The notes: generated by a model not told the origin, from the letters alone. A stretch of DNA of 64,000 nucleotides from a virus (IMGVR_UViG_3300008267_000004:96001-160000); one strand, 5' to 3'; counted from the first letter of the stretch, positions 1-19,432 are shown. A program made the numbers and translations.

Positions 1-214
1 TATCTTTCCGAACTTTATCTGTTTCACCAGATCCTTGTTCTTCATCTGTTAATTCCCAATCACTAAAGATATGCTTTGGAGAACAAAATTCCTCATGTGT
101 CCAATCTAATTCAATATAGGTTATATACGATTCATTTACGCCAGTTATTACTATAACTTCATTTTTGTTTTGATTACAGTACAACCTTCCTTCCTTAAAA
201 TCCTGTTTCGGCAT
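1..214 (-). CDS. small SH3/KOW-like array protein (runs off left edge; not in ORF track)
   Basis: Manual translation from ATG at 214: MPKQDFKEGRLYCNQNKNEVIVITGVNESYITYIELDW..., open to the window edge. The next member (IKFGKI) already begins near position 28. Confidence 0.75.
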   Translation of the reverse strand, partial: MPKQDFKEGRLYCNQNKNEVIVITGVNESYITYIELDWTHEEFCSPKHIFSDWELTDEEQGSGETDKVRKD

Positions 215-401
215 TTAATTCATTCATCCCATCTTTAAATGCTGCTGTATTCCAAGTGCAGTGTTCATCTGGTTCATCTAGGTAAAAAAATTCGATTAAG
301 ACTTCATGCTTTACTCTTCTTTTGCCAGTTACAACAACAACATCATCTTCATGTAAATATGGCTTACAACGAGTATACAGTTTACCTATTTGTATTTTCA
401 T
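195..401 (-). CDS. small SH3/KOW-like array protein
   Basis: Motifs IQIGKLY, VVVV, FYLDEPD; coupled to neighbours. Confidence 0.8.
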   Translation of the reverse strand: MKIQIGKLYTRCKPYLHEDDVVVVTGKRRVKHEVLIEFFYLDEPDEHCTWNTAAFKDGMNELNAETGF

Positions 402-612
402 GTTGAATATCTTTCCAATACATCTTAGCTAACCCTAATGCTCCTTCAACTACAGGAAAATCAGGTCTGTTAATATGATGATACCAAACTGAATCGGAGA
501 TTTCTTCTATGTTATCAACAACGACAACATCATTTTTAATTGGCTCAATATACAAACGTCCCGGCTCAATCTTCTTGACCATTACAAATCTCGTAATATT
601 GTGTAAACTCAT
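382..612 (-). CDS. small SH3/KOW-like array protein
   Basis: IEPGRLY, DVVVV, YHHINRPD. Confidence 0.75.
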   Translation of the reverse strand: MSLHNITRFVMVKKIEPGRLYIEPIKNDVVVVDNIEEISDSVWYHHINRPDFPVVEGALGLAKMYWKDIQHENTNR

Positions 613-775
613 ATAGATTAAAAAATGCTTCGTAACCCAAATGGACTATATGACCCCATACTTTATATGCTGTGTACGTTGTTGGTTGTGTTGAGACAAT
701 TTCTAAAGGTATAAAATATACTCTTGTGCATTTTTCTACTTTTTTTGTTACATATACCTTTCCAAATTGTATCAT
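566..775 (-). CDS. small SH3/KOW-like array protein
   Basis: IQFGKVY motif. Confidence 0.7.
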   Translation of the reverse strand: MIQFGKVYVTKKVEKCTRVYFIPLEIVSTQPTTYTAYKVWGHIVHLGYEAFFNLYEFTQYYEICNGQED

Positions 776-1017
776 ATAAATTCCCTTATCTCTTCAACTA
801 TAAATGTATCAAAAAAAGTTCTCATGTTTCCAATACAATTACTTTCCCTATTGATGTAATGATAGTTTATCCATCCACCATTTGCGATAGATCCTATCTC
901 GTCAAACATAATATATCTTTCTTCTTCTCCGGCAAATGTATTTTCTGGCTTTTTAAACTTTAGTTTGTATATTCTTCCTAAACAGAGATTCATATTTGTC
1001 CCTCCACTAGTTTCCAT
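772..1017 (-). CDS. small SH3/KOW-like array protein
   Basis: LCLGRIY, YHYINRE. Confidence 0.72.
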   Translation of the reverse strand: METSGGTNMNLCLGRIYKLKFKKPENTFAGEEERYIMFDEIGSIANGGWINYHYINRESNCIGNMRTFFDTFIVEEIREFI

Positions 1018-1211
1018 TTCTGCATTTGAATGATTTCTGGTGTTATAAACATTATATGGTCTGGGGAGTTTAGATTGAAGCCGGAATAGAACTCTCCAAT
1101 TGCTTCTTTATTGGGAATTCCATCGGGATGATGATTACATATCAACACATATTGATTAGATATTTTATATATCCGCCCTAATTTAACCATCATAGACCTT
1201 GCATGTGCCAA
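990..1211 (-). CDS. small SH3/KOW-like array protein
   Basis: VKLGRIY, FNLNSPD. Confidence 0.72.
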   Translation of the reverse strand: MAHARSMMVKLGRIYKISNQYVLICNHHPDGIPNKEAIGEFYSGFNLNSPDHIMFITPEIIQMQKWKLVEGQI

Positions 1212-1411
1212 TCTTCTGTTATTTCAAAATATCTGCTTCTAAAGATTGAAATGTTACAATGAAAATTAGATTCAAGTTCTTCTAGAACTGCAAATTGAAC
1301 TTCCCCACGTGGATAGATTTTTTTTACTATCACAACTTGTGGCATTGTATCAATTTGTGCGTTTGGTTTCATTCTGTAAATCTTGCCAACTTTTACTGAA
1401 TCAGTTACCAT
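1190..1411 (-). CDS. small SH3/KOW-like array protein
   Basis: VKVGKIY, VVIV, FAVLEE. Confidence 0.75.
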   Translation of the reverse strand: MVTDSVKVGKIYRMKPNAQIDTMPQVVIVKKIYPRGEVQFAVLEELESNFHCNISIFRSRYFEITEDWHMQGL

Positions 1412-1637
1412 CTTCCACCTCCATTAATTCAAATGTATCAAGTAATGTTCTTCTGGAAATAGGAAACAATTTATCTGGCTTATCTAATTCCATGTACCGA
1501 TATTGAGTATAATCTGGTCCATTTATTGCGGTGGCAGCTGTTGCATCCTCCATAAGGATAATGTATGGAGGATACAGGATATCTAATAGATCTTGAACAT
1601 CTTTTCTTTTTTTATAGACTCTGCCAAGTTTAACCAT
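1401..1637 (-). CDS. small SH3/KOW-like array protein
   Basis: VKLGRVY, YMELDKPD. Confidence 0.75.
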   Translation of the reverse strand: MVKLGRVYKKRKDVQDLLDILYPPYIILMEDATAATAINGPDYTQYRYMELDKPDKLFPISRRTLLDTFELMEVEDGN

Positions 1638-1861
1638 TAAATGAATCCCATTACTTTTTTACAATTATCAAAAAATTCTTCTGGCATTGTTTGTTGAAAA
1701 TCGAGGTTTCTTACGTTTGCAACTTTATATCTTTTTGTTTTTACAACAAATTCTAATACAATTATGTATTCCTCAAATCCATTCATATACCAGACAGATC
1801 CTGGTTTAACCTTCATGCTCAACCCAATTTTTGTTAATAAACGCACCTTCCAGTTCATCAT
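1637..1861 (-). CDS. small SH3/KOW-like array protein
   Basis: VKPGSVW, YIIVL; true start probably at MKVKPG. Confidence 0.68.
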   Translation of the reverse strand: MMNWKVRLLTKIGLSMKVKPGSVWYMNGFEEYIIVLEFVVKTKRYKVANVRNLDFQQTMPEEFFDNCKKVMGFI

Positions 1862-2000
1862 TGTTATCAGTCATTCGGAAAAAACTAGCTTGTGTCCATC
1901 CTTCTTTATATAAATGAACCCTAGAAATAAACACAATTGAATTGTTTTTTAGACACTTATAAACTTTACCGGCTTTAAATTTGATCATTGTCATATTCAA
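1806..2000 (-). CDS. small SH3/KOW-like array protein
   Basis: FKAGKVY, IVFI, C-terminal W. Confidence 0.72.
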   Translation of the reverse strand: MNMTMIKFKAGKVYKCLKNNSIVFISRVHLYKEGWTQASFFRMTDNNDELEGAFINKNWVEHEG

Positions 2001-2172
2001 TCCAAACGTTTTTAATTAACGAATAAGGAACCCATCTATGAATTGTTGGGTCTTTTAAAAGAACATATTCTAGATGGCCGTTTTTTTCATCTGTCACACA
2101 AACAGTTTCTTCTCTTCCAAAGAAGATATGATAATAAAATCCTCCTACCTTTATTTTTTTATCATCTGCCAT
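1975..2172 (-). CDS. small SH3/KOW-like array protein
   Basis: IKVGGFY, YVLLKDP. Confidence 0.75.
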   Translation of the reverse strand: MADDKKIKVGGFYYHIFFGREETVCVTDEKNGHLEYVLLKDPTIHRWVPYSLIKNVWIEYDNDQI

Positions 2173-2372
2173 CTATCCACCTGATCATTTTCATATGCTA
2201 CATGAATATTATCTGGTTCATCAAGCATATGATATTCAATTAAAGTATTTTCCTGTAGACGGCTTCTTTTTACATCGGTGATAACCATAATTGGTTGTTC
2301 GTCTGGATCTTCTTCCATATATCTTGAGAATTTAGTTCTTTTACGGTAAAGTTTTCCTACTTGGAATTCCAT
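2151..2372 (-). CDS. small SH3/KOW-like array protein
   Basis: FQVGKLY, MVITDV, YHMLDEPD. Confidence 0.8.
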   Translation of the reverse strand: MEFQVGKLYRKRTKFSRYMEEDPDEQPIMVITDVKRSRLQENTLIEYHMLDEPDNIHVAYENDQVDRWQMIKK

Positions 2373-2611
2373 TTAAACATCCTCATGTTTTCTTTTATCA
2401 ATACCCATTCACGTTCAGCGGTATCTTTCCATAAGAACCTCTCATTATTTGGTTCATCTAGATAATGATAGATATATCCATTCACAATATCATTTGGACC
2501 AAATTTTTCTGTTGAGAACTTTGTAACACAGATAATCTTCTTATCCCAATCTGCTGTATCGGGCCACAAGTATAATTTGCCTATTTTTATTGTTGTCACG
2601 CTAATTCCCAA
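2357..2611 (-). CDS. small SH3/KOW-like array protein
   Basis: IKIGKLY, ICVTK, YHYLDEPN. Confidence 0.8.
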   Translation of the reverse strand: MGISVTTIKIGKLYLWPDTADWDKKIICVTKFSTEKFGPNDIVNGYIYHYLDEPNNERFLWKDTAEREWVLIKENMRMFKWNSK

Positions 2612-2853
2612 TCGCTTTCATCTAGAAGAGAACTGTGTATATATTCTGCATCATTTAGAAAATAGTAATTATAGTATTCATACATTTCGTTATCAATTGA
2701 GTGACCAGCTATAACAATATAAGATGTATGATCTACCCCCGTTTGACGAAAGGTTCTTTTATAAACTTTTCCAATTTCTAATTTAAATTGTCTCATTACA
2801 CACTTCCCAACCACGACGAATAAATTTGTCGAATACAACGTGCTTTGTTTCAA
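2596..2853 (-). CDS. small SH3/KOW-like array protein
   Basis: LEIGKVY, YIVI, YYFLND; true start probably at MRQFK. Confidence 0.75.
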   Translation of the reverse strand: MKQSTLYSTNLFVVVGKCVMRQFKLEIGKVYKRTFRQTGVDHTSYIVIAGHSIDNEMYEYYNYYFLNDAEYIHSSLLDESDWELA

Positions 2854-3022
2854 GATTGTCTAAATAGCTGTATATTACGGTATAATAGATGTTATTAGGA
2901 TGATATGTGGATCCTATCATATGTTTAATAACCTCTTGAATAAGTATATAAGTGTTTTTGTGAGTTTTGGACCTGTATATTTTACCGACTTCGATAGTGT
3001 GTTTTTTCATAGCTTGGCCCAA
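2783..3022 (-). CDS. small SH3/KOW-like array protein
   Basis: IEVGKIY, YILI, YSYLDN. Confidence 0.78.
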   Translation of the reverse strand: MGQAMKKHTIEVGKIYRSKTHKNTYILIQEVIKHMIGSTYHPNNIYYTVIYSYLDNLETKHVVFDKFIRRGWEVCNETI

Positions 3023-3207
3023 TTACTCATAACGTGTACATTAAGCTCTACATCTGGATCTTGTATATCGTAGGCAGATGCAAAACGCTCACCTGCCCAC
3101 ATATCTACATAATCTATACAAACAACCATCCCTGTATGTTTATTTACATACAATCTACCAACCTCGAAAAAATCAACATTCGCCATACCAATCCTCAAAA
3201 TTTTCAA
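3007..3207 (-). CDS. small SH3/KOW-like array protein
   Basis: FEVGRLY, VVCI, YDIQDPD. Confidence 0.75.
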   Translation of the reverse strand: MKILRIGMANVDFFEVGRLYVNKHTGMVVCIDYVDMWAGERFASAYDIQDPDVELNVHVMSNWAKL

Positions 3208-3358
3208 TCGGCGTTTGTTCGATTAAATCAGGTTCATGCATACATTGATATTCTACATATACATCGCCTTCACTCTTAAAGATTTTTAAGATTACAACAC
3301 ACTCTTCTGGAAAGACGTAGTTTTGATATGCTTTACCAATTTTGAATACTTGATTCAT
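3173..3358 (-). CDS. small SH3/KOW-like array protein
   Basis: FKIGKAY, VVIL, YQCMHEPD. Confidence 0.78.
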   Translation of the reverse strand: MNQVFKIGKAYQNYVFPEECVVILKIFKSEGDVYVEYQCMHEPDLIEQTPIENFEDWYGEC

Positions 3359-3644
3359 TTACTCTCAACCAATCTTCATAACAGTGTCTGTAATTTACTG
3401 CTGTATTCCAGCTAAACTTACTAAAGTTATTACCTCCATGAGTATACCACTCAATTCGATAAACATCTCCTCTTTCCAGTTTTTCTATTATTTGTCCAAG
3501 ACAGTCTTGATATGGTGTCATTACAAAATCACCAATATTAACTTCTCTAGCTTTTTCCCAACTAGGTTTCTTCCCAATTTCTGTAGGCATCCTGATTCCA
3601 AGCACCATGGTTAAAATTTGGTTCATCAATATACCAAAAAACAA
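3333..3644 (-). CDS. small SH3/KOW-like array protein
   Basis: VNIGDFV, LGQI, YRIEW; true start probably at MPTEI. Confidence 0.72.
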   Translation of the reverse strand: MFFGILMNQILTMVLGIRMPTEIGKKPSWEKAREVNIGDFVMTPYQDCLGQIIEKLERGDVYRIEWYTHGGNNFSKFSWNTAVNYRHCYEDWLRVNESSIQNW

Positions 3645-3822
3645 TCTGTCTTAGTTGATTTGGCATTTGATCTAAAATTGATTCTACAACTAGATATCTT
3701 CCTGTTTCTCTATCTTTATACATCTTACCGGGAATTATTTCCCTTTCTAGTTGCTCAACACCATTATTTTTTTCTTTAACCAATTCCATCAATCTCTTAA
3801 GGCTTCCCGGTTGCATCTTCAT
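3562..3822 (-). CDS. small SH3/KOW-like array protein
   Basis: IIPGKMY, YLVV, FWYIDEPN. Confidence 0.78.
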   Translation of the reverse strand: MKMQPGSLKRLMELVKEKNNGVEQLEREIIPGKMYKDRETGRYLVVESILDQMPNQLRQIVFWYIDEPNFNHGAWNQDAYRNWEET

Positions 3823-4012
3823 TTATTCTCACCCAAAATCCTGTCTCATTTAAGAAAAAAGTAAACAACTCTTCGTCTGGTTCTTCAAGATAAATAAACT
3901 GAAATCCTTTATCATCTACTTTGGTAATGCATATAACAGATTCAGACCCATAACTTCCTCTGTATAGGCAACCTACTTTGTAGTAATTTGTTGGATTTCT
4001 TTTAATCATCAA
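3797..4012 (-). CDS. small SH3/KOW-like array protein
   Basis: YKVGCLY, VICITKV, FIYLEEPD. Confidence 0.8.
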   Translation of the reverse strand: MMIKRNPTNYYKVGCLYRGSYGSESVICITKVDDKGFQFIYLEEPDEELFTFFLNETGFWVRINEDATGKP

Positions 4013-4205
4013 AATTTTCTAGTTCATCTATTTTATCTATCAAAACGTCTAAATATTCTTTAAATGGAAAACTTGGAGCGTGTAATCTAAATACTCTACA
4101 GATCGCGTCTTCGGTATTAGGATTTATAATATCCGTTATTACCAAAAAAGATTTTTCATATAACTTATCTTTTTCTCTGTATATTTTTCCCGGCTGTATT
4201 ATCAT
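4002..4205 (-). CDS. small SH3/KOW-like array protein
   Basis: IQPGKIY, LVITDI, FRLHAP. Confidence 0.75.
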   Translation of the reverse strand: MIIQPGKIYREKDKLYEKSFLVITDIINPNTEDAICRVFRLHAPSFPFKEYLDVLIDKIDELENFDD

Positions 4206-4434
4206 TCCATGTCTCTTTAAAATCTTGTAAAAAAGATTTAACTGTTTTACCCATCGGATGTTTTTCTAAGTCAGAAACATAGTGAAATATTACCATATCC
4301 GACTTTTTTTCGGTTACAATAACATATTCTGGAACTGGTTCCATAGTGACAGGATCAATATATGATTTCCATTTTGTTGCATATATTTTACCCAGCTTTA
4401 TTTCTGCTGGCTCTCTTTTTTGACTCTGATCCAT
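4165..4434 (-). CDS. small SH3/KOW-like array protein
   Basis: IKLGKIY, YVIVTE, FHYVSD. Confidence 0.75.
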   Translation of the reverse strand: MDQSQKREPAEIKLGKIYATKWKSYIDPVTMEPVPEYVIVTEKKSDMVIFHYVSDLEKHPMGKTVKSFLQDFKETWNDNTAGKNIQRKR

Positions 4435-4601
4435 TCATCAATCACCTTTGAATTTTTATATGGTCCATGGACAATATATTTATTTTCTTTATTCATTTCT
4501 TCAGGTAGTTCTAAGGATGATTGTACACCTTTAGTCTCCTTATTTACATAAATATACCATCTCTCTGGGTCTTTCTCTTTATTGGCTTTTACTTTCATCA
4601 T
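4398..4601 (-). CDS. hypothetical protein
   Basis: Coupled minus-strand ORF within the array; lacks the family motif. Confidence 0.6.
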   Translation of the reverse strand: MMKVKANKEKDPERWYIYVNKETKGVQSSLELPEEMNKENKYIVHGPYKNSKVIDEWIRVKKESQQK

Positions 4602-4602
4602 T

Positions 4603-4794
4603 TCAATCCTTTACTTCAGTAAAGCAATTCAAAAATAACATTTTAGAAAACCAAGATTCTTTATCGTAAGTCATATATCTAATTTTATACATCATAACTT
4701 CATATGCGAATCCTTGCGGTAATCTTTTACCTTGCGAGATCACTACGACATGATTTTCGTTTTTATCCTTGAATACTTTTCCAATAACGCTCAT
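4603..4794 (-). CDS. small SH3/KOW-like array protein
   Basis: SVIGKVF, HVVVI. Confidence 0.7.
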   Translation of the reverse strand: MSVIGKVFKDKNENHVVVISQGKRLPQGFAYEVMMYKIRYMTYDKESWFSKMLFLNCFTEVKD

Positions 4795-5002
4795 TTACTT
4801 CCCTTGTTTTACCTAGAAAACTATCATAAAGATCATACCTAATTTCATCTGACTTAAGATTATGTAGCTGAACCCACTTTAGGTTGCCATCCATATATGT
4901 TTTAAGAACACAATATACATCCAGCATACTCATCTTTTGATAATAAAAATGTCCGACCTTAAGTGATCTTTTAGCCATTACCATTCTCCATACCACTCGC
5001 AA
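4763..5002 (-). CDS. small SH3/KOW-like array protein
   Basis: LKVGHFY, VYCVL; start probably at ATG 4978, in a TAATG overlap with the upstream member. Confidence 0.72.
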   Translation of the reverse strand: MRVVWRMVMAKRSLKVGHFYYQKMSMLDVYCVLKTYMDGNLKWVQLHNLKSDEIRYDLYDSFLGKTREVNERYWKSIQG

Positions 5003-5197
5003 AAAACTGAGACAGAATCTGTAATCATATGTTCTGGATCATCTATAGCATAGTATTCAATTATCATGCCTTTATATGCTTCAAAGATATCACTCACAAC
5101 CACAGGAATTGCCTCATCCCCGTCAACAATTATTCGATACATCCTACCGATAAGTGGTTCTTTTTTTTTTGTCTTTGAGACTATAATACTCCATCAT
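4978..5197 (-). pseudogene. array member frameshifted in an A10 homopolymer
   Basis: The T10 run at 5161-5170 (+ strand) gives a stop five codons later. With A9 the frame reads MMEYYSLKDKKKEPLIGRMYRIIVDGDEAIPVVVSDI...IEYYAIDDPE...W and ends in a TAATG overlap with the next gene. Confidence 0.75.
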
Positions 5198-5253
5198 ATT
5201 CTATCTTTTAACCGGCTTAATTGGAGAAATTGGTGTGACCGGAGCAACTGGAA

Positions 5254-5466
5254 TTATACCCATGATCCATCCTTTTTCGTAAATATATTTCTAAAATCAC
5301 TTACAGTTCTACAAAATGTTGGATAGAATGTCCCAACATCTGCAAGATTTGAAATATATTCTGCAAATACGGTAGATCCTTTTATATCGAGGATAACAAC
5401 ATATTTGTCATCTCCAATGTCTGGATCGTATCTAAACCAAAGTTCACCTATAGATGGAAAACTCAT
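5254..5466 (-). CDS. small SH3/KOW-like array protein
   Basis: PSIGELW, YVVILDI. Confidence 0.72.
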   Translation of the reverse strand: MSFPSIGELWFRYDPDIGDDKYVVILDIKGSTVFAEYISNLADVGTFYPTFCRTVSDFRNIFTKKDGSWV

Positions 5467-5689
5467 TAATCTTATCCTCTATTCCTCTTTTGGTAATTTC
5501 TTCAAAGCTCTTAGTAACTTTGTATTTATCATACGAGTTTGGACGCATTTGATGCAATCCAATATATGTATTATGATAAATTAATAATTCTTCATCAGAA
5601 AATAATTCTACTTCTTTATCAATAGCTGTAATCATTTCTTTAGTTAGTGACATCATATCCTTTCTCCATTTTTTGAAAAGTATATCCAA
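5444..5689 (-). CDS. hypothetical helical protein
   Basis: Coupled minus-strand ORF; no family motif. Confidence 0.6.
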   Translation of the reverse strand: MDILFKKWRKDMMSLTKEMITAIDKEVELFSDEELLIYHNTYIGLHQMRPNSYDKYKVTKSFEEITKRGIEDKINEFSIYR

Positions 5690-5861
5690 ACATTACATCA
5701 GGTTCGTTTGTTAGCGGGAACCAATCACACATATCAAGATTTTTTTCAATCCAATAAACTTTATATCTATTTATATCGGATCTATAATCGGTAACAACAA
5801 AATGATTTGTATCTCCAATCATATGAGTTTGTTTTATTACATCACCAATTTTAAACTTCAT
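5640..5861 (-). CDS. small SH3/KOW-like array protein (subfamily B)
   Basis: FKIGDVI, FVVTD, YKVYW. Confidence 0.75.
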   Translation of the reverse strand: MKFKIGDVIKQTHMIGDTNHFVVTDYRSDINRYKVYWIEKNLDMCDWFPLTNEPDVMFGYTFQKMEKGYDVTN

Positions 5862-6123
5862 CGGTTTTCTCTTCTTCCTCTTCCCTTAGAGAAATATTTT
5901 CATTTGCTACAATCCAAAAATTTCCATCTAATCTAACATGAGTATGTTCTTGATCATATGCAGTAGATTCAGTAAAAACTTCATTTACTGCATATCCTTT
6001 ACTTTCTTTCTCCATCACCTTACCAATAGCGTGTAGTTCTTTTTCATTTTTACCTTTGTAATAAATTGTAAATATTGGAGAACCTACTTTTACATATATT
6101 GGCTGTTCATGGTTGAAATACAT
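5851..6123 (-). CDS. small SH3/KOW-like array protein
   Basis: VKVGSPI, IGKV. Confidence 0.65.
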   Translation of the reverse strand: MYFNHEQPIYVKVGSPIFTIYYKGKNEKELHAIGKVMEKESKGYAVNEVFTESTAYDQEHTHVRLDGNFWIVANENISLREEEEEKTDEV

Positions 6124-6376
6124 TTGGAACCTTTCTGTACGTAAAAGGATAATCTGATTCTGGAGTGTCTTTTAGGAGCATATCGTTATACTCAATTCCG
6201 GTATTCAAGCAATACACATCATATAAATATTGTGATTCTATGTTTAGCTTAACTTTAAGTACTGTTATCATCACAGAAGTTTGATCTTCGATACAGAACT
6301 CTTCAACCATATCGCCAACATTGAATTTAGGATTGTCGAACAAAGTATTTCCAGAATGATTCAGCATATAGTTCAC
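6107..6376 (-). CDS. small SH3/KOW-like array protein
   Basis: FNVGDMV, ITVLKV, YDVY. Confidence 0.72.
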   Translation of the reverse strand: MNYMLNHSGNTLFDNPKFNVGDMVEEFCIEDQTSVMITVLKVKLNIESQYLYDVYCLNTGIEYNDMLLKDTPESDYPFTYRKVPNVFQP

Positions 6377-6584
6377 ACTCTTTTCCAGTTGCTATGTCAA
6401 TGTATTTGACTGTATGAACACATTTTTTAACTGGCTTAATCCTTGTTGTCCATTCTACTTTTTCAATATCTGTCACAGCAACTGAATTGCTATATATCTT
6501 ACCAATTTCAATTATTGCTTCATCATATTCATACTTAGAAAGTTTTGTTATCTTTCTTGCTGGAAAACCGCTTCCGTCACTCAT
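6327..6584 (-). CDS. small SH3/KOW-like array protein
   Basis: IEIGKIY, VAVTDI, YIDI. Confidence 0.72.
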   Translation of the reverse strand: MSDGSGFPARKITKLSKYEYDEAIIEIGKIYSNSVAVTDIEKVEWTTRIKPVKKCVHTVKYIDIATGKECELYAESFWKYFVRQS

Positions 6585-6903
6585 CTACCCTCCGAAGATA
6601 TTTAAGAGGGATAACAAACTCTCCAGTATATTTATCATCCATGATCGTACATGAAATGAGTGGAAAGCCGTTACGTTGATAGAAGATGCTATTGATTGCT
6701 ACTATAGAATCTTGAAACACATAGTAATTTGTTCTAGCCAAATCTCCGACTTTCCACTCATTTGTCATAGCATCTATCGCTTTCTGTTTAGACGACGTGC
6801 TCGACGTTTCTTGCTTCCTAACTTCCTGCGTCCTTTTCGTGGACGGTTCTTGTGTGGATGTGCCATGTGTATCGCCTCCCTTCTTAATTGTAAATATTGC
6901 CAT
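6577..6903 (-). CDS. small SH3/KOW-like array protein with basic N-terminal extension
   Basis: WKVGDLA; C-terminal IPLKYLRRV. Confidence 0.68.
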   Translation of the reverse strand: MAIFTIKKGGDTHGTSTQEPSTKRTQEVRKQETSSTSSKQKAIDAMTNEWKVGDLARTNYYVFQDSIVAINSIFYQRNGFPLISCTIMDDKYTGEFVIPLKYLRRVDE

Positions 6904-7150
6904 TAAACAACCTCACGTATTCAGAGATTTCAGAATCTTTGAAACCTGCACTTGTGAGTTGGTTATACTTTTCTTCTGTGATCAAAAATTGCGGTTTGAC
7001 ATAACCTGTCAGTCCGTCACTCCATTCAATATAAGGAATTGAAGTGCCTAATCTAAAATTTTGAATAGTACCCGAAACATTTCCCTTATCACCATACTTA
7101 GTGGCTTCGGGGCATACGACGCTGGTTCCTACCTTATAGATGCTCGACAT
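6884..7150 (-). CDS. small SH3/KOW-like array protein (subfamily B)
   Basis: YKVGTSV, GTI, YIEWSDG; directly downstream of the promoter at 7181-7209. Confidence 0.78.
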   Translation of the reverse strand: MSSIYKVGTSVVCPEATKYGDKGNVSGTIQNFRLGTSIPYIEWSDGLTGYVKPQFLITEEKYNQLTSAGFKDSEISEYVRLFNGNIYN

Positions 7151-7180
7151 ATGTTATTTCCTCGCTGAAAAGACACCGCC

Positions 7181-7209
7181 AGTATATCACGGGCCGGTTT
7201 AGAAGTCAA
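7181..7209 (-). promoter_or_regulatory. sigma70-like promoter
   Basis: TTGACT-17 nt-TATACT with TG extended -10. Confidence 0.8.
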
Positions 7210-7492
7210 GAACTTTTTTACCGTCAGGATTTATTAGAAACTGTAAATAATTATCTCTGAATCTATTAACATCATAAATATCATGTGGGACAATAGATTC
7301 CTTCCCTCCCTCCCACCATAACACTTCTGCATATATCCCATCTGATTGGAAATTTTGAACACATCCCATAATGTATTCACCACCATCAGAAAAAAATTGT
7401 TCAGATAGTTTGGTAACACCAGCAACCCGGTACAGCACCAGATCCCCTACTTTGTATTTTATTTTTCTCTGAGTTTTCTGTTTATGTCGCAT
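7199..7492 (-). CDS. small SH3/KOW-like array protein (subfamily B)
   Basis: YKVGDLV, MGCV, EVLWWEG. Confidence 0.75.
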   Translation of the reverse strand: MRHKQKTQRKIKYKVGDLVLYRVAGVTKLSEQFFSDGGEYIMGCVQNFQSDGIYAEVLWWEGGKESIVPHDIYDVNRFRDNYLQFLINPDGKKVLDF

Positions 7493-7505
7493 ACCAGCCG
7501 CCGCA

Positions 7506-7781
7506 TTATCCGCTTGCTTCTAGTTCTTTTTGACACACCTCGCTAAATTCAAGATACTTCTCTCGATACTCAAGAACATCTTTTTCAGCGAAGGCTTCAT
7601 CATCACCTTCATTATCTGACCATACAAGACGATAATAATATCCACTAGTATCAAAGTTGGTAGGAATTAAAACTTCAGTAATTTCACCAATTGCATATTG
7701 TCCTTCTACTATATTTTGCTTATCATCAAAGTAATCATCTAATACAATTTCACCAACTTTGAATTTTGGTTGTGGTCTCAT
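7506..7781 (-). CDS. small SH3/KOW-like array protein (subfamily B)
   Basis: FKVGEIV, IGEITEV, YRLVWSD. Confidence 0.78.
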   Translation of the reverse strand: MRPQPKFKVGEIVLDDYFDDKQNIVEGQYAIGEITEVLIPTNFDTSGYYYRLVWSDNEGDDEAFAEKDVLEYREKYLEFSEVCQKELEASG

Positions 7782-7789
7782 ATTAAATC

Positions 7790-8188
7790 CTAAAACTTGT
7801 AAGTCCCAATCATGGTTTCATCAACACTATAAACAACCTTAGAAATTCCTCGTTCCTCAAGCAAAGCATGGCACATATTGCAGGGTTTGCTCATACGCAT
7901 CGAACCATCCTTCTTAGACGCACGAACAACATACATCGTTGCACCCTTTGTTACGCTACGATCAAGGCCAAGTATGGCTGAAATCTCAGCGTGATAAGTG
8001 CTGTGTCCCTTATCACTATGCCTAAACTTAGCACCAACACTAGAATACTTCTCGTTATTAACACCCAAGCCGAGGATTGCCGAACCCTTTTCAAGAACTG
8101 CACCATGCCGAAAATTACCGTATTCGCTACTAACAGCGAGTTTTTGTGCCAACTTGGAGTAACCTCCGAATCTTCTTAGATGCATCAC
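7790..8188 (-). CDS. zinc-dependent cytidine/adenosine deaminase-superfamily protein
   Basis: HAE and PCNMC zinc motifs; RHGAV and SKVVY segments typical of the CDA fold. Confidence 0.9.
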   Translation of the reverse strand: MMHLRRFGGYSKLAQKLAVSSEYGNFRHGAVLEKGSAILGLGVNNEKYSSVGAKFRHSDKGHSTYHAEISAILGLDRSVTKGATMYVVRASKKDGSMRMSKPCNMCHALLEERGISKVVYSVDETMIGTYKF

Positions 8189-8490
8189 TCAGGCTGAATA
8201 TCGTTTCCATCGAGATCCTCCGGCTTAAAATGAAGCCCCATAGCTTCGTTAATACACTTCATCATGAACTTACCAGAACGAACAAATGCCTCTTTTTCAT
8301 ATCCTGGCATTGATTCGTCTGACCACTCAATTGCATATAATTTTGTAGATTCATCATAACCAACAACAGTTCCTACAATTGGTGATTCATGTTCTTGTGA
8401 CGGTTTTGCGTAGATCATATCACCATTCTTAATTTCTACTTTAGTCTCTGGCTTCTTCTTCATTTTCGTATCCCTCAAGTGTTTCCACAA
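8185..8490 (-). CDS. small SH3/KOW-like array protein (subfamily B)
   Basis: IKNGDMI, VGTV, YAIEWSD. Confidence 0.75.
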   Translation of the reverse strand: MWKHLRDTKMKKKPETKVEIKNGDMIYAKPSQEHESPIVGTVVGYDESTKLYAIEWSDESMPGYEKEAFVRSGKFMMKCINEAMGLHFKPEDLDGNDIQPE

Positions 8491-8716
8491 GTAAATGTTT
8501 ATATCTAGCTATTGAACCGCTATCGTAGCTCATGAGTTCATCTTCGTCGTTCCAAAGAACATGATATTCTTTATATCCCTTAATAACACCTGGAGTAATT
8601 TCCGAAATATAACCAATAATTGGTACATCCATTGAATCAAAATAATCTGGCTCTACACACATAACCAGATCGCCAACTTTATGCTTTTCAAAATTTACTT
8701 TGTAACCACTAGGCAT
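8441..8716 (-). CDS. small SH3/KOW-like array protein (subfamily B)
   Basis: HKVGDLV, IGYI, YHVLWND. Confidence 0.78.
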   Translation of the reverse strand: MPSGYKVNFEKHKVGDLVMCVEPDYFDSMDVPIIGYISEITPGVIKGYKEYHVLWNDEDELMSYDSGSIARYKHLLVETLEGYENEEEARD

Positions 8717-8922
8717 GGCTCATTTACCTTATCTTCTACCCATTCTTCTGCAAACCAACCACAATCAACACCAAATTCACCTAAATCTTCAGAAGGCTCG
8801 CAGAAGTGAATAAGATAATCATTATATCTTCCACGATGATTTTTTTTCTTGATTATCACTCCAAGACCATAATATTCATCATATATCAATTGACCGTTCT
8901 TGAATTTGAATTGGCAATCCAT
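8695..8922 (-). CDS. small SH3/KOW-like array protein (subfamily B)
   Basis: FKNGQLI, LGVI, YLIHF. Confidence 0.72.
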   Translation of the reverse strand: MDCQFKFKNGQLIYDEYYGLGVIIKKKNHRGRYNDYLIHFCEPSEDLGEFGVDCGWFAEEWVEDKVNEPCLVVTK

Positions 8923-9157
8923 TTAACGCATCCTGATAGTTTTGAATAATCTCAGCAATAAAGTTTGCTTCGTCGCTGTACCAATCATCATCGTTATCGT
9001 CAAAGATGATGTTGTATGGGAATGAAGTATTAGGATTTTTATCTATCGCAACAATCACTCCAATAGAGGGTTGAAGAAATTTATGATCTTCTCTATCTGG
9101 TTTTGGTAGAAACAAAACAGGTGTACCAACTTTATAATCCGTATCCATATTCCTCAC
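8879..9157 (-). CDS. small SH3/KOW-like array protein (subfamily B)
   Basis: YKVGTPV, IGVI, YNIIFDD. Confidence 0.78.
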   Translation of the reverse strand: MRNMDTDYKVGTPVLFLPKPDREDHKFLQPSIGVIVAIDKNPNTSFPYNIIFDDNDDDWYSDEANFIAEIIQNYQDALNGLPIQIQERSIDI

Positions 9158-9395
9158 TCAACCTTTCAGCTTCTTCTGGCATCATCTTGCCGTTAACAGC
9201 TTGTTTCCAATACAGTTCAACCCAAGGTTCTTCATACCATGAATCTTCATCATCTTCCCAGATGATTCTGTATACGTATTCGTTGTCCTCTTCTTTTATG
9301 TCCACAATTGCGCCCAACTGTGGGGTCATAATTTTTTCGTAATTGGGTCCAGTATCTATATAACAAACAACTGGAGTTCCTATCTTAAGGATCAT
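9132..9395 (-). CDS. small SH3/KOW-like array protein (subfamily B)
   Basis: LKIGTPV, LGAI, YRIIWED. Confidence 0.78.
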   Translation of the reverse strand: MILKIGTPVVCYIDTGPNYEKIMTPQLGAIVDIKEEDNEYVYRIIWEDDEDSWYEEPWVELYWKQAVNGKMMPEEAERLSEEYGYGL

Positions 9396-9426
9396 TGTTT
9401 TTCCTTTAGGTCAAGAAAAGTCAATT

Positions 9427-9600
9427 TCATGGGTTATATTTTTCCACAATATTAATATCCAACAAGATACCACACCAAGGACAATACGTAATTGGTTGTG
9501 GTTCCATGATTAAATAGAATCTATCAACTTCGTAATTAAAATAGATTCCATAACGTTCAGACTCATCACAACATTTTACGTCTACTGTATCGTTTGCCAT
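9427..9600 (-). CDS. small Cys-containing hypothetical protein (57 aa, not in ORF track)
   Basis: Manual translation MANDTVDVKCCDES...ITYCPWCG...; its start overlaps the stop of 9600..9845. Confidence 0.6.
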   Translation of the reverse strand: MANDTVDVKCCDESERYGIYFNYEVDRFYLIMEPQPITYCPWCGILLDINIVEKYNP

Positions 9601-9845
9601 TATGCCTTCCTGTTCCGCTCATTGTGCTTACGGAGCCTTTCTGAGTTTCTTTTAGCTAACAACGTAGCCGTCTTTAGCTGTTGCATTAATCTGATATGCC
9701 TATCTTGTTTTGCACGCTCCATATCCTTTATAAACCTACGATCAAGAACCCAGCTTTCAATCTTTGGAAGAATAAAGAGGTTCCAGATGTTAAAGAAGAA
9801 GATAGTACAGTTAATGAAAATAATCATATACAGTACATCACGCAT
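9600..9845 (-). CDS. hypothetical membrane-anchored protein
   Basis: N-terminal hydrophobic helix followed by a basic coiled tail. Confidence 0.6.
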   Translation of the reverse strand: MRDVLYMIIFINCTIFFFNIWNLFILPKIESWVLDRRFIKDMERAKQDRHIRLMQQLKTATLLAKRNSERLRKHNERNRKA

Positions 9846-10240
9846 TACGCCTTACCCTTGTGATTGGTGTTACCCTCAAACACGGCAACAGTCTGATAAG
9901 CAAAACCGGGTGACGACTTAAGTCCATGACCAATCTGGCATGACTTACCCTTGTGGAAACCGCTGTTTACCTGCCAGAAATCAATATAGGCAGCACGATC
10001 AGCTTCCGTATTGAAGCGCATAATGGACACGCCTGCCTGCTTACCGTCAGAATTCTGCACACCAGCATAACGAACAGTAGTCTCGTCGCTGCAATCAACA
10101 CAGTGAGTAGACAAACCACCAGCAGCACGCTTTGCCTTACTAAACGTATCAAACTCACCACCACACTCAACACATTCGCGGATCATATAAACCTCTGAAA
10201 AAGTGGTATAAGCGCCCAAACCCAGCAGATAGTATAGCAA
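9845..10240 (-). CDS. hypothetical zinc-finger protein
   Basis: CVECG...CVDC; real start probably at MIRECV (~10186), downstream of promoter 10231-10259. Confidence 0.7.
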   Translation of the reverse strand: MLYYLLGLGAYTTFSEVYMIRECVECGGEFDTFSKAKRAAGGLSTHCVDCSDETTVRYAGVQNSDGKQAGVSIMRFNTEADRAAYIDFWQVNSGFHKGKSCQIGHGLKSSPGFAYQTVAVFEGNTNHKGKA

Positions 10241-10259
10241 AAACTGGCTGTGAAGTCAA
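10231..10259 (-). promoter_or_regulatory. sigma70-like promoter
   Basis: TTGACT-17-TATACT with TG extension. Confidence 0.8.
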
Positions 10260-10286: not shown

Positions 10287-10318
10287 AAAAAAACCCCGCC
10301 TAACTTAATAGGCGGGGT
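10287..10318 (-). terminator. intrinsic terminator closing the tRNA/ncRNA operon
   Basis: ACCCCGCC-10 nt-GGCGGGGT hairpin followed by a U tract. Confidence 0.85.
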
Positions 10319-10555: not shown

Positions 10556-10644
10556 TGGCGGAAAGTGTTGGATTTGAACCAACGGACCCTTTAGGGATCG
10601 ACAGTTTAGCAAACTGCTCGTTTAAGCCGCTCACGCAACTTTCC
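10556..10644 (-). tRNA. tRNA-Ser(GCT)
   Basis: Cloverleaf, long variable arm, loop TTGCTAA, CCA encoded. Confidence 0.92.
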
Positions 10645-10652
10645 ATGAAAAC

Positions 10653-10728
10653 TGGAGAGGGTAGTAAGATTCGCACTTACGATTGGGAGTTTTGCAGGCT
10701 CCTGCCTTACTCTCTTGGCTATACCCTC
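10653..10728 (-). tRNA. tRNA-Cys(GCA)
   Basis: Acceptor GAGGGTA/TACCCTC, loop CTGCAAA, U73, CCA. Confidence 0.9.
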
Positions 10729-10731
10729 ATA

Positions 10732-10820
10732 TGGAGGAAGAAGTGAGATTCGAACTCACGGACCCTTGTGGGATCTCTTGTTTTCTAGACAAGTACCATA
10801 AACCGCTCGGTCATTCTTCC
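10732..10820 (-). tRNA. tRNA-Ser(AGA)
   Basis: Perfect CTTGT/ACAAG stem, loop CTAGAAA, long variable arm, CCA. Confidence 0.85.
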
Positions 10821-10827
10821 AAAAAAT

Positions 10828-10903
10828 TGGTAGGTTCAACAGGAATTGCACCTGTACTCTCTCGATTATCAGTCGAGTGCTTTACTAATTAAGCTATGAA
10901 CCC
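10828..10903 (-). tRNA. tRNA-Ile(GAT)
   Basis: CTCGA-CTGATAA-TCGAG, CCA. Confidence 0.92.
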
Positions 10904-10904
10904 T

Positions 10905-11178
10905 CACAAAGCAAGTAGTTAACAGGGACACTTCGACTATGGTCCCCAATGGGATCGAAGAAATGTCCTTTTCGATGGGTAACTATCTTCGCTGTTACCA
11001 CACTAGAGTTATTTTTTAGCTTTTAGGCCCATTCCAGATTCTAAGTCTAGGGGAACCAAGGGGGCTTAATCACCAACCCACCTATTATCCCACGCCAGGG
11101 ATTCATCTAGCTAACTACAAAAAGTAACCCATCAGTTTGAGGATACTAAGTTTCAGCATAGCCTTGACAGGTTTTGTT
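10905..11178 (-). ncRNA. putative structured ncRNA A (shared GCGAAGA motif)
   Basis: Non-coding ~270 nt between tRNAs; GATGGGTTACT/AGTTACCCATC long-range pairing; motif copy at 10967-11006. Confidence 0.6.
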
Positions 11179-11180
11179 AT

Positions 11181-11258
11181 TGGCGAGGAGTACGGGACTT
11201 GAACCCGTGATCTCTGGCGTGACAGGCCAGTGCTTTAAACCAACTAAGCTAACTCCCC
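11181..11258 (-). tRNA. tRNA-Asp(GTC)
   Basis: CTGGC-CTGTCAC-GCCAG, CCA. Confidence 0.93.
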
Positions 11259-11269
11259 ATTAAAAGATT

Positions 11270-11354
11270 TGGTAGGGTCAGTCGGATTCGAACCGACACT
11301 CCTTGCGGAACCAGATTTTGAGTCTAGCGTGGCTACCTGTTACACCATGACCCC
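11270..11354 (-). tRNA. tRNA-Leu(CAA)
   Basis: CTAGA-CTCAAAA-TCTGG, long variable arm, CCA. Confidence 0.92.
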
Positions 11355-11362
11355 ACAAAAAG

Positions 11363-11706
11363 AACAGCATAAGGTGTGTTACTACACCAAAAGGAACCCA
11401 TACTTGCTACTTTGCATACCTCACGTTATCATCCGCTTGGCACTGTTCTGCTTGTATGCCGGGCATTCTCCTATTCCCCAACCCAGCAGGACTGATTTAT
11501 TTACAATTAAGTTAGTCGTGGTTTACCTACTTAACCCGGCTGATTACGGTTTTGAACCATCTATAGTTTATCGGGGTTTCCATAGACAATTTTCAGTACG
11601 CTTTCGCTCTGTCCACGCTGGAAAACAGCTTAACTAACACCTGCCTAGGATTTCGTCCTACTCATTATAAGATGGCTACTCTTAAGCCAACTTCCCGTAT
11701 GCTGTT
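11363..11706 (-). ncRNA. large structured ncRNA containing a 23S rRNA H43/H44 (uL11-binding) domain mimic
   Basis: 9-bp terminal helix AACAGCATA/TATGCTGTT; 5' part GGGAAGTTGGCTTAAGAGTAGCCATCTTATAATGAGT and 3' part GTGTAGTAACACACC align to 23S nt ~1054-1105 with compensatory changes. Confidence 0.8.
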
Positions 11707-11716
11707 TACAACTATT

Positions 11717-11791
11717 TGGTTCCGGTAGATGGATTCGAACCACCGTTCACAGATTCAAAGTCTGCTGTCCTGCCAGTTAGACGATACCGGA
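11717..11791 (-). tRNA. tRNA-Gln(TTG)
   Basis: GCAGA-CTTTGAA-TCTGT, CCA. Confidence 0.92.
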
Positions 11792-11796
11792 TCAAA

Positions 11797-11881
11797 TGGT
11801 GGGCAAGGTCGGAATCGAACCGACACTCCTTTCGGAACTGGCTTCTAAGACCAGCGCGGCTACCAGTTACGCCACCTGCCC
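11797..11881 (-). tRNA. tRNA-Leu(TAG)
   Basis: CTGGT-CTTAGAA-GCCAG, long variable arm, CCA. Confidence 0.92.
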
Positions 11882-11890
11882 ATACTACTA

Positions 11891-12289: not shown

Positions 12290-12339
12290 AATACACCTAT
12301 ACGATTTGTGGCGGCTGGCAGGCCGCGTTAGACAAAATT

Positions 12340-12413: not shown

Positions 12414-12417
12414 ATGA

Positions 12418-12633: not shown

Positions 12634-12636
12634 AAT

Positions 12637-12711: not shown

Positions 12712-12716
12712 ACAAA

Positions 12717-18757: not shown

Positions 18758-19432
18758 TTAATCCTTCATCCGATACTTCTTGAGCATCTTCTCTTCAACG
18801 GTGTTTTCCTCGCCAGAATTCATCCAAAGGACTCGGTACTGACGACCACCAATGTTTGCAGAGCGACGATTAACCTCGTCAAGAACCTTGACGACTGTAC
18901 CAACTTCGGGTTCATCACCACGACGACGCATTTGAACAACATCACCCGGCTCAAAAGCATTATTTGTCATGTTATGAATTAGACGCTTTGCATACTTGTT
19001 CTCACACATAGCGCGGAACTGCTTTTCAGTCGGGATGAACGACTTATCCTTGAGAGCCTTAGCTGCCAAATCTTGGAAGTAAGGAGTCTGGGAATAATAC
19101 TTAGCGCAAATCTCAAGCTGCTTCGCCTTCCAAGCATCCCAAGTGTTTGCCCATGCAGCACGATCTGCCTGCGCTTGAGCAACTACAGCAGGATCATACC
19201 GATTCTCGACAACCTCAAAATACTTATACTGATTGGCGCTCATGTTGTTAAACCGCTTCCAAGTGCTATCAAGGCTCGTAATAAATTCACGATCCTTCTG
19301 CGTCAGGGACGCATTTGCAAGCAGCTTGGTAAGACGTTCGCCAACAACAGGATCAGTAACGCGATCCGTTGCAGGGGCAGAGTTAAAACTACGATTGCGA
19401 GCGCGGTCAGCAAGATAACCCATTTTATTCAT
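18758..19432 (-). CDS. hypothetical protein with C-terminal SH3/KOW-like domain
   Basis: 224 aa; FEPGDVV...VGTV...YRVLW...LK; strongly biased codons. Confidence 0.82.
   Translation of the reverse strand: MNKMGYLADRARNRSFNSAPATDRVTDPVVGERLTKLLANASLTQKDREFITSLDSTWKRFNNMSANQYKYFEVVENRYDPAVVAQAQADRAAWANTWDAWKAKQLEICAKYYSQTPYFQDLAAKALKDKSFIPTEKQFRAMCENKYAKRLIHNMTNNAFEPGDVVQMRRRGDEPEVGTVVKVLDEVNRRSANIGGRQYRVLWMNSGEENTVEEKMLKKYRMKD

Follow-up and report, generated by a model that had tools for sequence, protein, structure and literature searches.

A hypervariable array of two paralog families of predicted small β-barrels in an uncultured phage, putatively diversified host- or defence-binding modules

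An uncultured water phage with a myovirus-type genome of 187 kb carries an array of small genes that directly follows its tRNA cluster, and by sequence comparison this array comprises two families of strongly diverged paralogs, designated A and B. Representatives of both families are predicted to fold as SH3-like small β-barrels. Related phages retain the locus, while its copies appear to have been wholly replaced by gene birth and death. Our best guess at a putative function is that the copies serve as diversified host- or defence-binding modules. Mini-barrel copies of the two families make up roughly one-sixth of the genes of this phage, which also encodes a DnaE-type polymerase, GroEL and 24 tRNAs.

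Organization of the array

Positions 1–9600 of the window (the whole 64,000-nucleotide stretch that was analysed) are densely filled with small minus-strand ORFs (Table 1). The first-pass annotation correctly described ORFs that overlap end to start and continue past the left edge: overlaps occur at 40 of the 49 gene junctions (median −14 nt), and the run extends ∼2.1 kb further, to genome position 93898. Five small ORFs and a deaminase gene belong to neither family, and an HNH endonuclease gene lies inside the family A run. One family A copy to the left of the window lacks its stop codon and reaches 114 aa, compared with 76 aa in relatives. Another begins within the conserved first-strand motif (4978..5142), where the in-frame upstream sequence reads ...PLIGRMY and contains no preceding ATG, GTG or TTG.

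Promoter-like sites with an extended −10 element were found at window positions 10259 and 7209 only, the next ones lying beyond the array; promoter-like pattern matches overall are not enriched in the region (48 found versus 46.6 expected from shuffles). Because the genes share one strand, mostly overlap and are served by no more than two candidate promoters of the host type, they are likely to be transcribed as long polycistronic messages and to be translationally coupled.

Table 1. Features of the array and its surroundings, in window coordinates. LOO z, leave-one-out HMM score relative to 100 shuffles; two values refer to two models.
Feature	Position	Strand	LOO z	Other evidence or remarks
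Family A copy	2..214	-	11.4	runs 4 nt off left edge
Family A copy, modelled	195..401	-	30.8	IQIGKLY...VVVV...FFYLDEPDE; AF2 pLDDT 89.7
Family A copy	382..582	-	8.9	
Family A copy (weak)	566..775	-	4.0	
Family A copy	772..993	-	7.3	
Family A copy	990..1190	-	6.3	
Family A copy	1190..1411	-	13.6	
Family A copy	1401..1637	-	11.3	
Family A copy	1637..1816	-	8.0	
Family A copy	1806..1988	-	6.0	
Family A copy	1975..2172	-	6.4	orthologue 85% identical on short metagenome contig
Family A copy	2151..2372	-	13.5	orthologue elsewhere 94.5% identical
Family A copy	2357..2599	-	9.8	
Family A copy	2596..2796	-	13.1	
Family A copy	2783..3010	-	8.1	
Family A copy	3007..3186	-	8.5	
Family A copy	3173..3358	-	6.2	
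Family B copy in A run	3333..3590	-	11.2 (B model), 1.3 (mixed model)	
Family A copy	3562..3789	-	8.2	
Family A copy	3797..4009	-	15.2	
Family A copy	4002..4205	-	11.1	
Family A copy	4165..4434	-	11.3	
Small ORF, neither family	4398..4601	-	0.3	no Pfam or PHROG match
Family A copy	4603..4794	-	6.3	
Family A copy (weak)	4763..4978	-	3.0	49% identical relative matches profile
Family A copy	4978..5142	-	5.7	start codon within first-strand motif
Small ORF, neither family	5254..5466	-	1.5 and -0.3	
Small ORF, neither family	5444..5656	-	-0.2	
Family B copy	5640..5861	-	5.8	
Family B copy (weak)	5851..6123	-	2.4	
Family B copy (weak)	6107..6367	-	2.8	
Small ORF, neither family by profile	6327..6584	-	2.1 and 0.2	internal IEIGKIY
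Family B copy (weak)	6577..6903	-	3.5	long basic Ser/Thr-rich N-terminal extension
Family B copy	6884..7150	-	9.6	
Sigma-70-like promoter candidate, extended -10	7181..7209	-		48-nt gap between B copies 7199-7492 and 6884-7150; TTGACT-17-TATACT + TG, 10/12; pattern match only
Family B copy	7199..7492	-	11.7	
Family B copy, modelled	7506..7781	-	14.9	barrel + C-terminal helix; AF2 pLDDT 89.8
Cytidine/dCMP deaminase-fold gene in B run, not a family member	7790..8185	-		PF00383, E 1.2e-13; phrog_174
Family B copy	8185..8463	-	9.2	
Family B copy	8441..8716	-	9.0	
Family B copy	8695..8922	-	10.6	
Family B copy	8879..9148	-	16.4	
Family B copy	9132..9395	-	10.2	transcriptionally first small-barrel gene of run
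Small Cys-rich ORF upstream of array, neither family	9427..9600	-	-0.6	
Sigma-70-like promoter candidate, extended -10	10231..10259	-		upstream of whole block; TTGACT-17-TATACT + TG; pattern match only
Terminator-like hairpin	10293..10318	-		end of tRNA operon just upstream of array; 10-bp stem, 7 GC pairs, then T run
224-aa protein, fused family B barrel	18758..19432	-		C-terminal residues 163-222; hmmsearch, iterated B model

Two families of diverged paralogs

The first-pass annotation had proposed 39 copies of a single scaffold among about 42 ORFs. The tandem paralog array is real, with 24 family A and 13 family B members in the window, and the annotation is partly confirmed in its observations and partly supported in its interpretation. 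Its exact seven-residue N-terminal pattern occurs in 14 of the ∼42 ORFs and reaches ∼37 only when relaxed. The core of this pattern, G[KRD][ILV][YV], lies near the N terminus (first 45 aa) in 27 of the 50 array ORFs, compared with 0.8 expected from shuffles and with 3 of the genome's 245 other ORFs.

Family A comprises 31 copies of 54–114 aa, of which 24 lie at 2–5142 and seven further left; none was detected elsewhere in the phage genome. They follow the pattern h-K-h-G-K/R-h-Y ... VVV ... Y-x-l-D-E-P-D ... W, where G6, Y9, the VVV strand, a Y/F-x-x-L-D-E-P turn and the C-terminal W are conserved and the remaining columns have an entropy of 3–3.8 bits. The VVVI strand and aromatic-acidic YLDEPD motif previously assigned to the whole array are present in family A but not in family B. 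The latter has the pattern K-V-G-D-x-V ... G-x-I ... Y-x-V-x-W followed by a C-terminal helix, and consists of 13 window copies (3333–3590 and 5640–9395), three dispersed copies and one domain fused to a larger protein. The fused barrel scored 29.6 bits (domain E 8e-11 in an hmmsearch of only 2 targets) and was taken in at E ≤ 1e-3 by an iterated search of ∼2,257 sequences.

Nearly all members scored above shuffled controls in leave-one-out HMM tests (z 4–30, 100 shuffles). Median pairwise identity among the paralogs is 18–20%, BLASTP connects just a few pairs, and at the DNA level the only repeats are short and code for motifs common to the copies, in keeping with the first-pass remark that the similarity is obvious in protein but not in DNA. 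The closest pair is 34% identical; with no recent duplicates, the suggestion of a gene accordion is unsupported. The notion of an expanded and strongly diversified set fared better, since both families conserve a hydrophobic core, one Gly and one turn while their surface positions are near-random. The families feature no conserved polar residue set of a catalytic type, and the net charge of the copies spans −13 to +4, so that they show no evident common binding chemistry, DNA mimicry for example.

It is possible, if somewhat short of an even prospect, that A and B are a single very old family that diverged past profile detection. Their models share top structural neighbours (the MRG15, MRG701 and MSL3 chromo barrels, the BmPAPI Tudor domain, VapX and R67 DHFR), the first strand of both opens with h-K-h-G-x-h-h, the families are interleaved, one B copy lying among the A copies, and some ORFs of one related phage (G015, below) score weakly with both models. 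However, hhalign gave a probability of 0.4–0.5% over 11–22 columns for A versus B, and the two sets stayed unmerged in iterated searches that included two relatives and recruited 0 of 1765 decoys. In addition, the long C-terminal helix and Y-x-V-x-W strand occur only in B and the D-E-P-D turn only in A. At the sequence level, the array therefore appears to be two families and not one scaffold.

Predicted fold and relatives

One representative of each family was modelled with AlphaFold2 (AF2); pLDDT was 89.7 for A and 89.8 for B, and both models are SH3/Tudor/chromo-like barrels. This agrees with the small β-barrel fold anticipated from the sequence and would place both representatives in the SH3-like small β-barrel class (∼5 bent antiparallel strands, ∼60 residues). 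Structural neighbours include Tudor, chromo, SH3 and KOW-type barrels, CarD-RID, VapX and DUF1653. The Tudor, chromo and SH3 domains matched at TM ∼0.6 and Z 5–7, a Z range that the search tool flags as a possibly common arrangement.

Sequence searches returned little: none of 42 ORFs matched Pfam at E ≤ 0.1, the KOW motif PF00467 included, and PHROGs and PDB sequence searches revealed no relatives of the families, the family B matches to eS4 and L24 in the PDB being weak (E 0.1–0.3). An exhaustive profile search of 1.84 billion protein representatives yielded 31 matches in all, of which 13 were the phage's own copies and one was a spurious repeat protein. Orthologues of array copies were identified on other contigs at 45–95% identity, and no cultured relative of the phage exceeds 31% identity. 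Both families appear to be lineage-restricted.

Structurally, family A is closest to phage DUF1653-like proteins (PF07866; 3be3; including proteins from jumbo phages of Erwinia and Serratia), which resemble it in size (∼60–80 aa), in consisting of one small barrel and a short helix or strand at the C terminus, and in being frequent in phages. Family A aligned to DUF1653 models with TM 0.70–0.78 (E 3e-3 to 2e-2) in BFVD and TM 0.82 and 0.75 in the ESM Atlas, and to PDB 3be3_B with Z 6.2 (rmsd 2.4 over 57 residues), a score in the common-arrangement range. The PF07866 model, whose gathering score is 23.5 bits, matched none of 42 ORFs at E ≤ 0.1 and nothing in the whole phage genome at E ≤ 1, although here the initial filter passed no candidates. 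To our knowledge, DUF1653 proteins have not been described as tandem arrays of dozens.

[quoted passage not shown] Like the array, these are small phage barrels with extremely divergent paralogs. The T4 proteins differ in that they are 119–141 aa long, carry a second C-terminal domain after a linker and are encoded by three dispersed genes, whereas the array features 47 single-domain copies in tandem, family A being a lone barrel and family B a barrel plus one helix. Profile comparison with GoF and MotB.1 gave hmmsearch E ≥ 0.1 and hhalign probabilities ≤0.5%.

Turnover in related phages

Comparison of array content among related phages, as the first-pass annotation had advised, revealed turnover of the repertoire in two relatives. 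Contigs G013 and G015 hold the same locus with 27 and 89 small ORFs, respectively: in the former, 3 copies belong to A and 17 to B, while the ORFs of the latter fall into at least 11 paralog clusters. No one-to-one orthologues exist between the array copies of the three phages (median best identity 32%), yet the flanking single-copy genes are 50–60% identical between our phage and these relatives. The locus thus appears to be retained while its copies are wholly replaced by gene birth and death.

Arbiol et al. 2010 reportedly describe the hyperplastic regions of T4-type phages as small early ORFs between conserved modules. The array resembles such regions as a fixed locus between conserved genes, beside tRNA genes, whose small ORFs differ between relatives. 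Unlike them, it is dominated by two paralog families instead of unrelated ORFans, and the DnaE-type polymerase of this phage is not of the T4 type.

Possible functions

We consider it doubtful that the copies are LSm/Tudor/KOW-type nucleic-acid binders that adjust how stable phage or host RNAs are or how they are processed, including the neighbouring tRNA operon. A role of this kind has reportedly been proposed for T4 GoF(D25Y) or Cef, the latter a protein of 71 aa that modifies suppressor tRNAs. The fold class also contains LSm, KOW and PWWP domains, the array comes straight after the tRNA cluster, and Cef scored 9.6 bits with the A model, a value reached by 2 of 500 shuffles. This score is borderline after 32 tests, however, and Cef lacks the first strand; hhalign probabilities to GoF, MotB.1 and MotB were ≤1.5%. 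Moreover, the copies have no conserved basic or aromatic binding face, many are strongly acidic (net charge −8 to −13), and it is difficult to see why a phage would need 47 different RNA binders.

Redirection of host transcription by RNA polymerase-docking Tudor-like domains, as in CarD/CdnL, Mfd and UvrD/PcrA, is improbable. CarD 4l5g was the top match to A in a wide search (Z 7.1, rmsd 2.4 over 61 residues), and Mfd 6ac6 (Z 6.4), the RNAP-lobe-bound UvrD C-terminal domain 7egs (Z 6.1), the PcrA Tudor domain 5dma and CdnL 2lqk were also among the top matches, but these Z values lie inside the tool's noise band. CarD and UvrD are also neighbours of B, whose K-V-G-D-x-V opening resembles CarD; against this, the CarD_TRCF RID family (PF02559) matched none of 42 ORFs at E ≤ 0.1, and one target poorly fits dozens of divergent copies with full turnover.

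The lost start and stop codons and the HNH gene could be taken as signs that the array is largely functionless duplication debris, an amplification relic or the result of selfish spread, which a large genome tolerates. This is highly improbable, given that all 49 array ORFs are open, tightly packed and score best for codon usage in the called frame, core residues are kept across copies merely 18% identical, 45–95% identical orthologues persist on other contigs and relatives maintain the locus.

A locus that is kept while being filled with entirely different copies has the look of a collection of binding proteins that turns over quickly. We therefore tentatively favour, at somewhat less than even confidence, a hypervariable accessory locus of mini-barrels acting as diversified host- or defence-binding modules, in which the binding, its timing and its targets are what we infer. 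The two mini-barrel families would consist of single-domain SH3/Tudor-like proteins. Each copy would be produced after infection as a small cytoplasmic binder that attaches stoichiometrically to its own host, defence or toxin protein, distinct from those bound by the other copies. The result would be a changeable repertoire of binders or inhibitors and not one gene with one target.

A more specific version, which we regard as unlikely, is a clade-wide birth-and-death repertoire of counter-defence or antitoxin-like mini-barrels at a fixed site, each copy directed at a different defence or toxin protein, while a conserved face may dock one common partner. VapX, a neighbour of both models, neutralises VapD. 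The G-K/R-x-Y motif and D-E-P-D turn of family A form a candidate docking face. If such a counter-defence repertoire exists, it would represent a phage counterpart to gene repertoires of the immune type.

Two paralog families in the array

The small minus-strand ORFs of the array, described in the first-pass annotation as one tandem family, fall into two families of SH3/Tudor-like barrels, A and B. Leave-one-out HMMs were built and each left-out sequence was scored against 100 shuffles of itself. These shuffled controls upheld both families: family A comprises 31 copies, 24 of them within the window, with z-scores of 4–30 for ORFs from window −2102 to 5142 (the sole exception, at 4763–4978, had a z-score of 3.0), while a separate family B model gave z-scores of 5–16 for ten array ORFs in 3333–3590 and 5640–9395, and 2.4–3.5 for three further array ORFs. 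When the A profile was searched against all six frames of the genome, matches were confined to genome 93916–101169; family B totals about 17 copies, some of which are dispersed (see the table). Five small array ORFs belong to neither family.

The profile tests kept A and B apart, and a single family was rejected at the level of sequence profiles. Profile–profile comparison aligned the first strand alone, at a probability of 0.4–0.5%, and iterated searches, run on this genome plus the contigs of two relatives and 1765 shuffled decoys, admitted none of the decoys and at no point merged the two sets. Family B is also used as a fused domain, as its barrel ends two paralogs, one of 224 aa and one of 294 aa, that belong to no Pfam family; the match is strong in the former and weak in the latter.

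Pairwise identity is low, with medians of 18% (A) and 20% (B) and a maximum of 34%. Family A has an invariant G6, a nearly invariant Y9 and, at position 7, a residue that is usually basic (Lys in 16 of 30 copies, mostly Arg in the others); its second strand resembles V-V-V. About half of the copies have a Y/F-x-x-L-D-E-P-D turn, followed towards the C-terminus by a Trp in 20 of 31, and the other columns have entropies of 3–3.8 bits. Family B runs from K-V-G-D-x-V through G-x-I and Y-x-V-x-W-x-D to a long C-terminal helix. Net charge ranges from +4 to −13, family B copies being mostly strongly acidic. The seven-residue N-terminal pattern originally proposed occurs in its exact form in just 14 of about 42 window ORFs, but its shorter core, G[KRD][ILV][YV], holds up well: it lies within the first 45 residues of 27 of 50 array ORFs, compared with 3 among the 245 ORFs elsewhere and 0.8 for shuffled sequences.

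Organization and expression signals

Small minus-strand ORFs form a gapless tiling of window 1–9600 and continue for a further 2.1 kb leftward, ending at genome 93898, so the run does extend past the left edge as first annotated. With starts picked by motif and RBS, the array contains 49 small ORFs and two other genes, which encode a deaminase and an HNH-type endonuclease. The end-to-start overlaps were also borne out, at 40 of 49 junctions (median −14 nt). The remark that similarity is visible in protein and not in DNA was correct, as BLASTP links few pairs of array ORFs and the DNA repeats are exclusively motif-coding 16–37-mers. A recent gene accordion, which had also been suggested, was ruled out by paralog identities of at most 34% and the lack of DNA repeats beyond these motif-coding stretches; its strict form is unsupported, given that the copies all differ from one another at the DNA level.

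Several loci within the array are irregular. The HNH-type gene (160 aa; phrog_3322, E = 1.6e-33) lies within the family A run, and just beyond it is a 19-residue match to the family A N-terminal strand (E = 0.006), which may be the remnant of a disrupted copy. One family A ORF of 114 aa runs approximately 110 nt into the next gene and has apparently lost its stop codon, since relatives on other contigs that are 88–95% identical have only 76 aa. In another copy, the start Met lies inside the conserved first-strand motif; the in-frame upstream sequence reads ...PLIGRMY with no ATG, GTG or TTG and is followed by a 111-nt gap up to window 5253, so this copy may have a non-canonical start or be decaying. 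The deaminase gene, inside the B run, has 65–66% identical homologues in the related phage contigs G001 and G002 that sit elsewhere, flanked by counterparts of genome 158.1 and 158.6 kb, which indicates that this gene has moved.

Coordinates of features in and around the array
Feature	Window	Genome	Remark
Dispersed family B copies (three)		83015, 84782, 86880	
GC-rich island		87800–93000	GC 0.41–0.45 vs 0.33
Family A ORF, 114 aa	−1269 to −928	94731–95072	apparent lost stop
Match to family A first strand		95108–95164	19 residues
HNH-type endonuclease gene	−845 to −363	95155–95637	
Family A ORF modelled	195–401		
Family A copy with internal start Met	4978–5142		
Extended −10 sigma-70-like site	7209–7181		pattern match, coding strand
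Family B ORF modelled	7506–7781		
Deaminase gene	7790–8185		
Zn-ribbon gene	9845–10240		
Extended −10 sigma-70-like site	10259–10231		pattern match, coding strand
24 tRNAs	10556–14963		
294-aa protein	17550–18434		ends in family B barrel (weak match)
224-aa protein	18758–19432		C-terminal 60 residues match family B

Promoter-like sites are not in excess (48 against 46.6 expected), which ruled out a promoter for each gene. Only two extended −10 sites lie near the array on the coding strand; the one beside the tRNAs directly follows the strong terminator that closes the tRNA operon, and the next such site is at genome 93696, past the array end. No terminator-like hairpin was found on the coding strand within the array, where the T4 late-promoter motif occurs once. 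Taken as pattern matches, these signals fit one or two long polycistronic transcripts that would be read by host polymerase.

Predicted fold

AlphaFold2 models, one per family and built with the family alignments, had pLDDT values of 89.7 (A) and 89.8 (B). Foldseek against the PDB returned weak matches only (E ≥ 0.08, TM ∼0.6), all of them small barrels, in agreement with the beta-barrels first proposed: MRG and MSL3 chromo barrels, Tudor domains, R67 DHFR, eS4 KOW, VapX and HspQ. A wide VIA search ranked CarD (Z 7.1), the BAHCC1 Tudor domain, VapX (6.8), TraI and Mfd for family A, followed by DUF1653 3be3 (6.2), R67 DHFR and the UvrD C-terminal domain, and Tudor, chromo and MBT domains (Z ≤ 5.6) for family B, all of these Z values falling in the tool's "common arrangement" band. 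Among predicted viral structures, the best matches to A were phage DUF1653-type proteins (TM 0.70–0.78), and an ESM Atlas structure search agreed (TM 0.82 and 0.75). DUF1653 is therefore the nearest structural class, but without sequence membership: Pfam and PHROGs gave nothing significant for 42 array ORFs, the PF07866 (DUF1653) model had no match in the whole genome, and PDB sequence profiles yielded nothing significant.

The same locus in related phages

The source IMG/VR record is rated complete at 187,450 bp and carries essentially all genes on the minus strand. Genes for a DnaE-type polymerase, GroEL, DnaB helicase and ribonucleotide reductase are present, as are those for portal, large terminase, major head and tail sheath proteins. 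The phage has no close cultured relative (polymerase identity ≤31%); among cultured phages, megablast of the array plus 20 kb beside it gave no useful match, and tblastn with one A and one B copy gave no match.

Relatives identified by DnaB comprised 11 IMG/VR contigs without family A or B, but none of these covers the locus. The two largest, G001 and G002, both end at its expected position, and the other nine lack the left flank. Synteny with G001 is limited to genome 130.8–187.4 kb and 1–26.3 kb; G002 (IMGVR_UViG_3300023174_000056; 168 kb, 92% complete) brackets the array, as its ends map to genome ∼84.8 kb and 108.6 kb. A search by left-flank gene provided two contigs that do cover the locus. 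In the first, G013, 27 small ORFs occupy 6.7 kb; three are assigned strictly to A and 17 strictly to B. Its homologue of the Zn-ribbon gene is 55% identical and stands in a different gene order. The second, G015 (IMGVR_UViG_3300020577_011395), is a more distant relative with a much larger array of 89 small ORFs over ∼23 kb (2.1–23.4 kb and 31–32.8 kb); seven are assigned strictly to A and one to B, and its small ORFs form at least 11 paralog clusters of their own (sizes 21, 9, 6, 5, 5, 4 and smaller). The GC-rich island that separates the array from the conserved left flank holds duplicated genes of 125–128 aa, and G013 has the same duplicated genes at 37–43% identity.

Comparison of array content among related genomes revealed complete turnover, the small genes numbering 47 here, 27 in G013 and 89 in G015. 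For copies in the relatives, the best match to any copy here has a median identity of 32% and, in most cases, a non-significant E-value, whereas single-copy neighbour genes are 50–60% identical; the locus is thus conserved and its contents are not.

With the A profile, an exhaustive search through 1.84 billion representatives yielded 31 proteins (E ≤ 1e-3), comprising 13 of the phage's own copies, one spurious repeat protein and 17 others with 27–95% identity to one or another own copy. Clear orthologues (85–95% identity) are present among the foreign proteins, three of them on contigs of the same 2813 bp; others are at most ∼30% identical to every own copy, which indicates that related phages hold paralogs absent from this genome. 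A word-indexed search with family B gave eight matches. The foreign A homologues looked up are on contigs of 0.5–3.2 kb, with fellow cluster members on contigs of up to 21 kb. Three single homologues (P0007, P0008 and P0044) had no match among viral contigs, both scans of metagenome contigs for homologues were empty, and a fourth protein (P0022) gave only spurious 14–30-residue matches to genome contigs. The G001 and G002 assemblies break at or around the array locus; together with the short contigs that carry A homologues, this may be a sign that the array differs between strains in natural populations.

Putative function

We suggest that the array is a repertoire of putative binding modules under changing selection, whose likeliest targets would be host proteins, or defence and toxin proteins. 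This reading draws on several features that jointly fit such a repertoire: the proteins are small and show no catalytic signature, their core is conserved and their surface free, the genes are tightly packed as an operon, and they are confined to a single phage clade, with wholesale turnover at a locus that stays fixed.

A rival reading is RNA binding of the T4 GoF or Cef type. T4 Cef (T4 6267–6482), a 71-aa protein that modifies suppressor tRNAs, reaches 9.6 bits with the family A model, as do 2 of 500 shuffles; this is notable because the array abuts the tRNA operon, and is a weak lead that becomes borderline after multiple tests. The closest parallel in the literature is the T4 GoF/MotB.1/Frd.2 "LSm-like fold" family (PMC12152347), but its architecture differs from that of the array proteins, and no profile similarity to GoF, MotB.1 or MotB was found. 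Docking to RNA polymerase is a second rival, of the type represented by CarD, Mfd or UvrD. The third would treat the array as debris; the called frame has the best codon score in all 49 small ORFs.

Our literature search found nothing directly relevant on tandem SH3-like small phage paralogs, and sequence comparisons suggest that A and B are two new orphan families. The case reveals no new mechanism by itself. It supplies two orphan families whose folds are modelled with confidence and whose conserved core is mapped, and direct comparative evidence of a locus kept across a phage clade while its contents are fully replaced. It also provides a concrete sequence set for binding and anti-defence screens, and for the study of how phages make and discard small binders.
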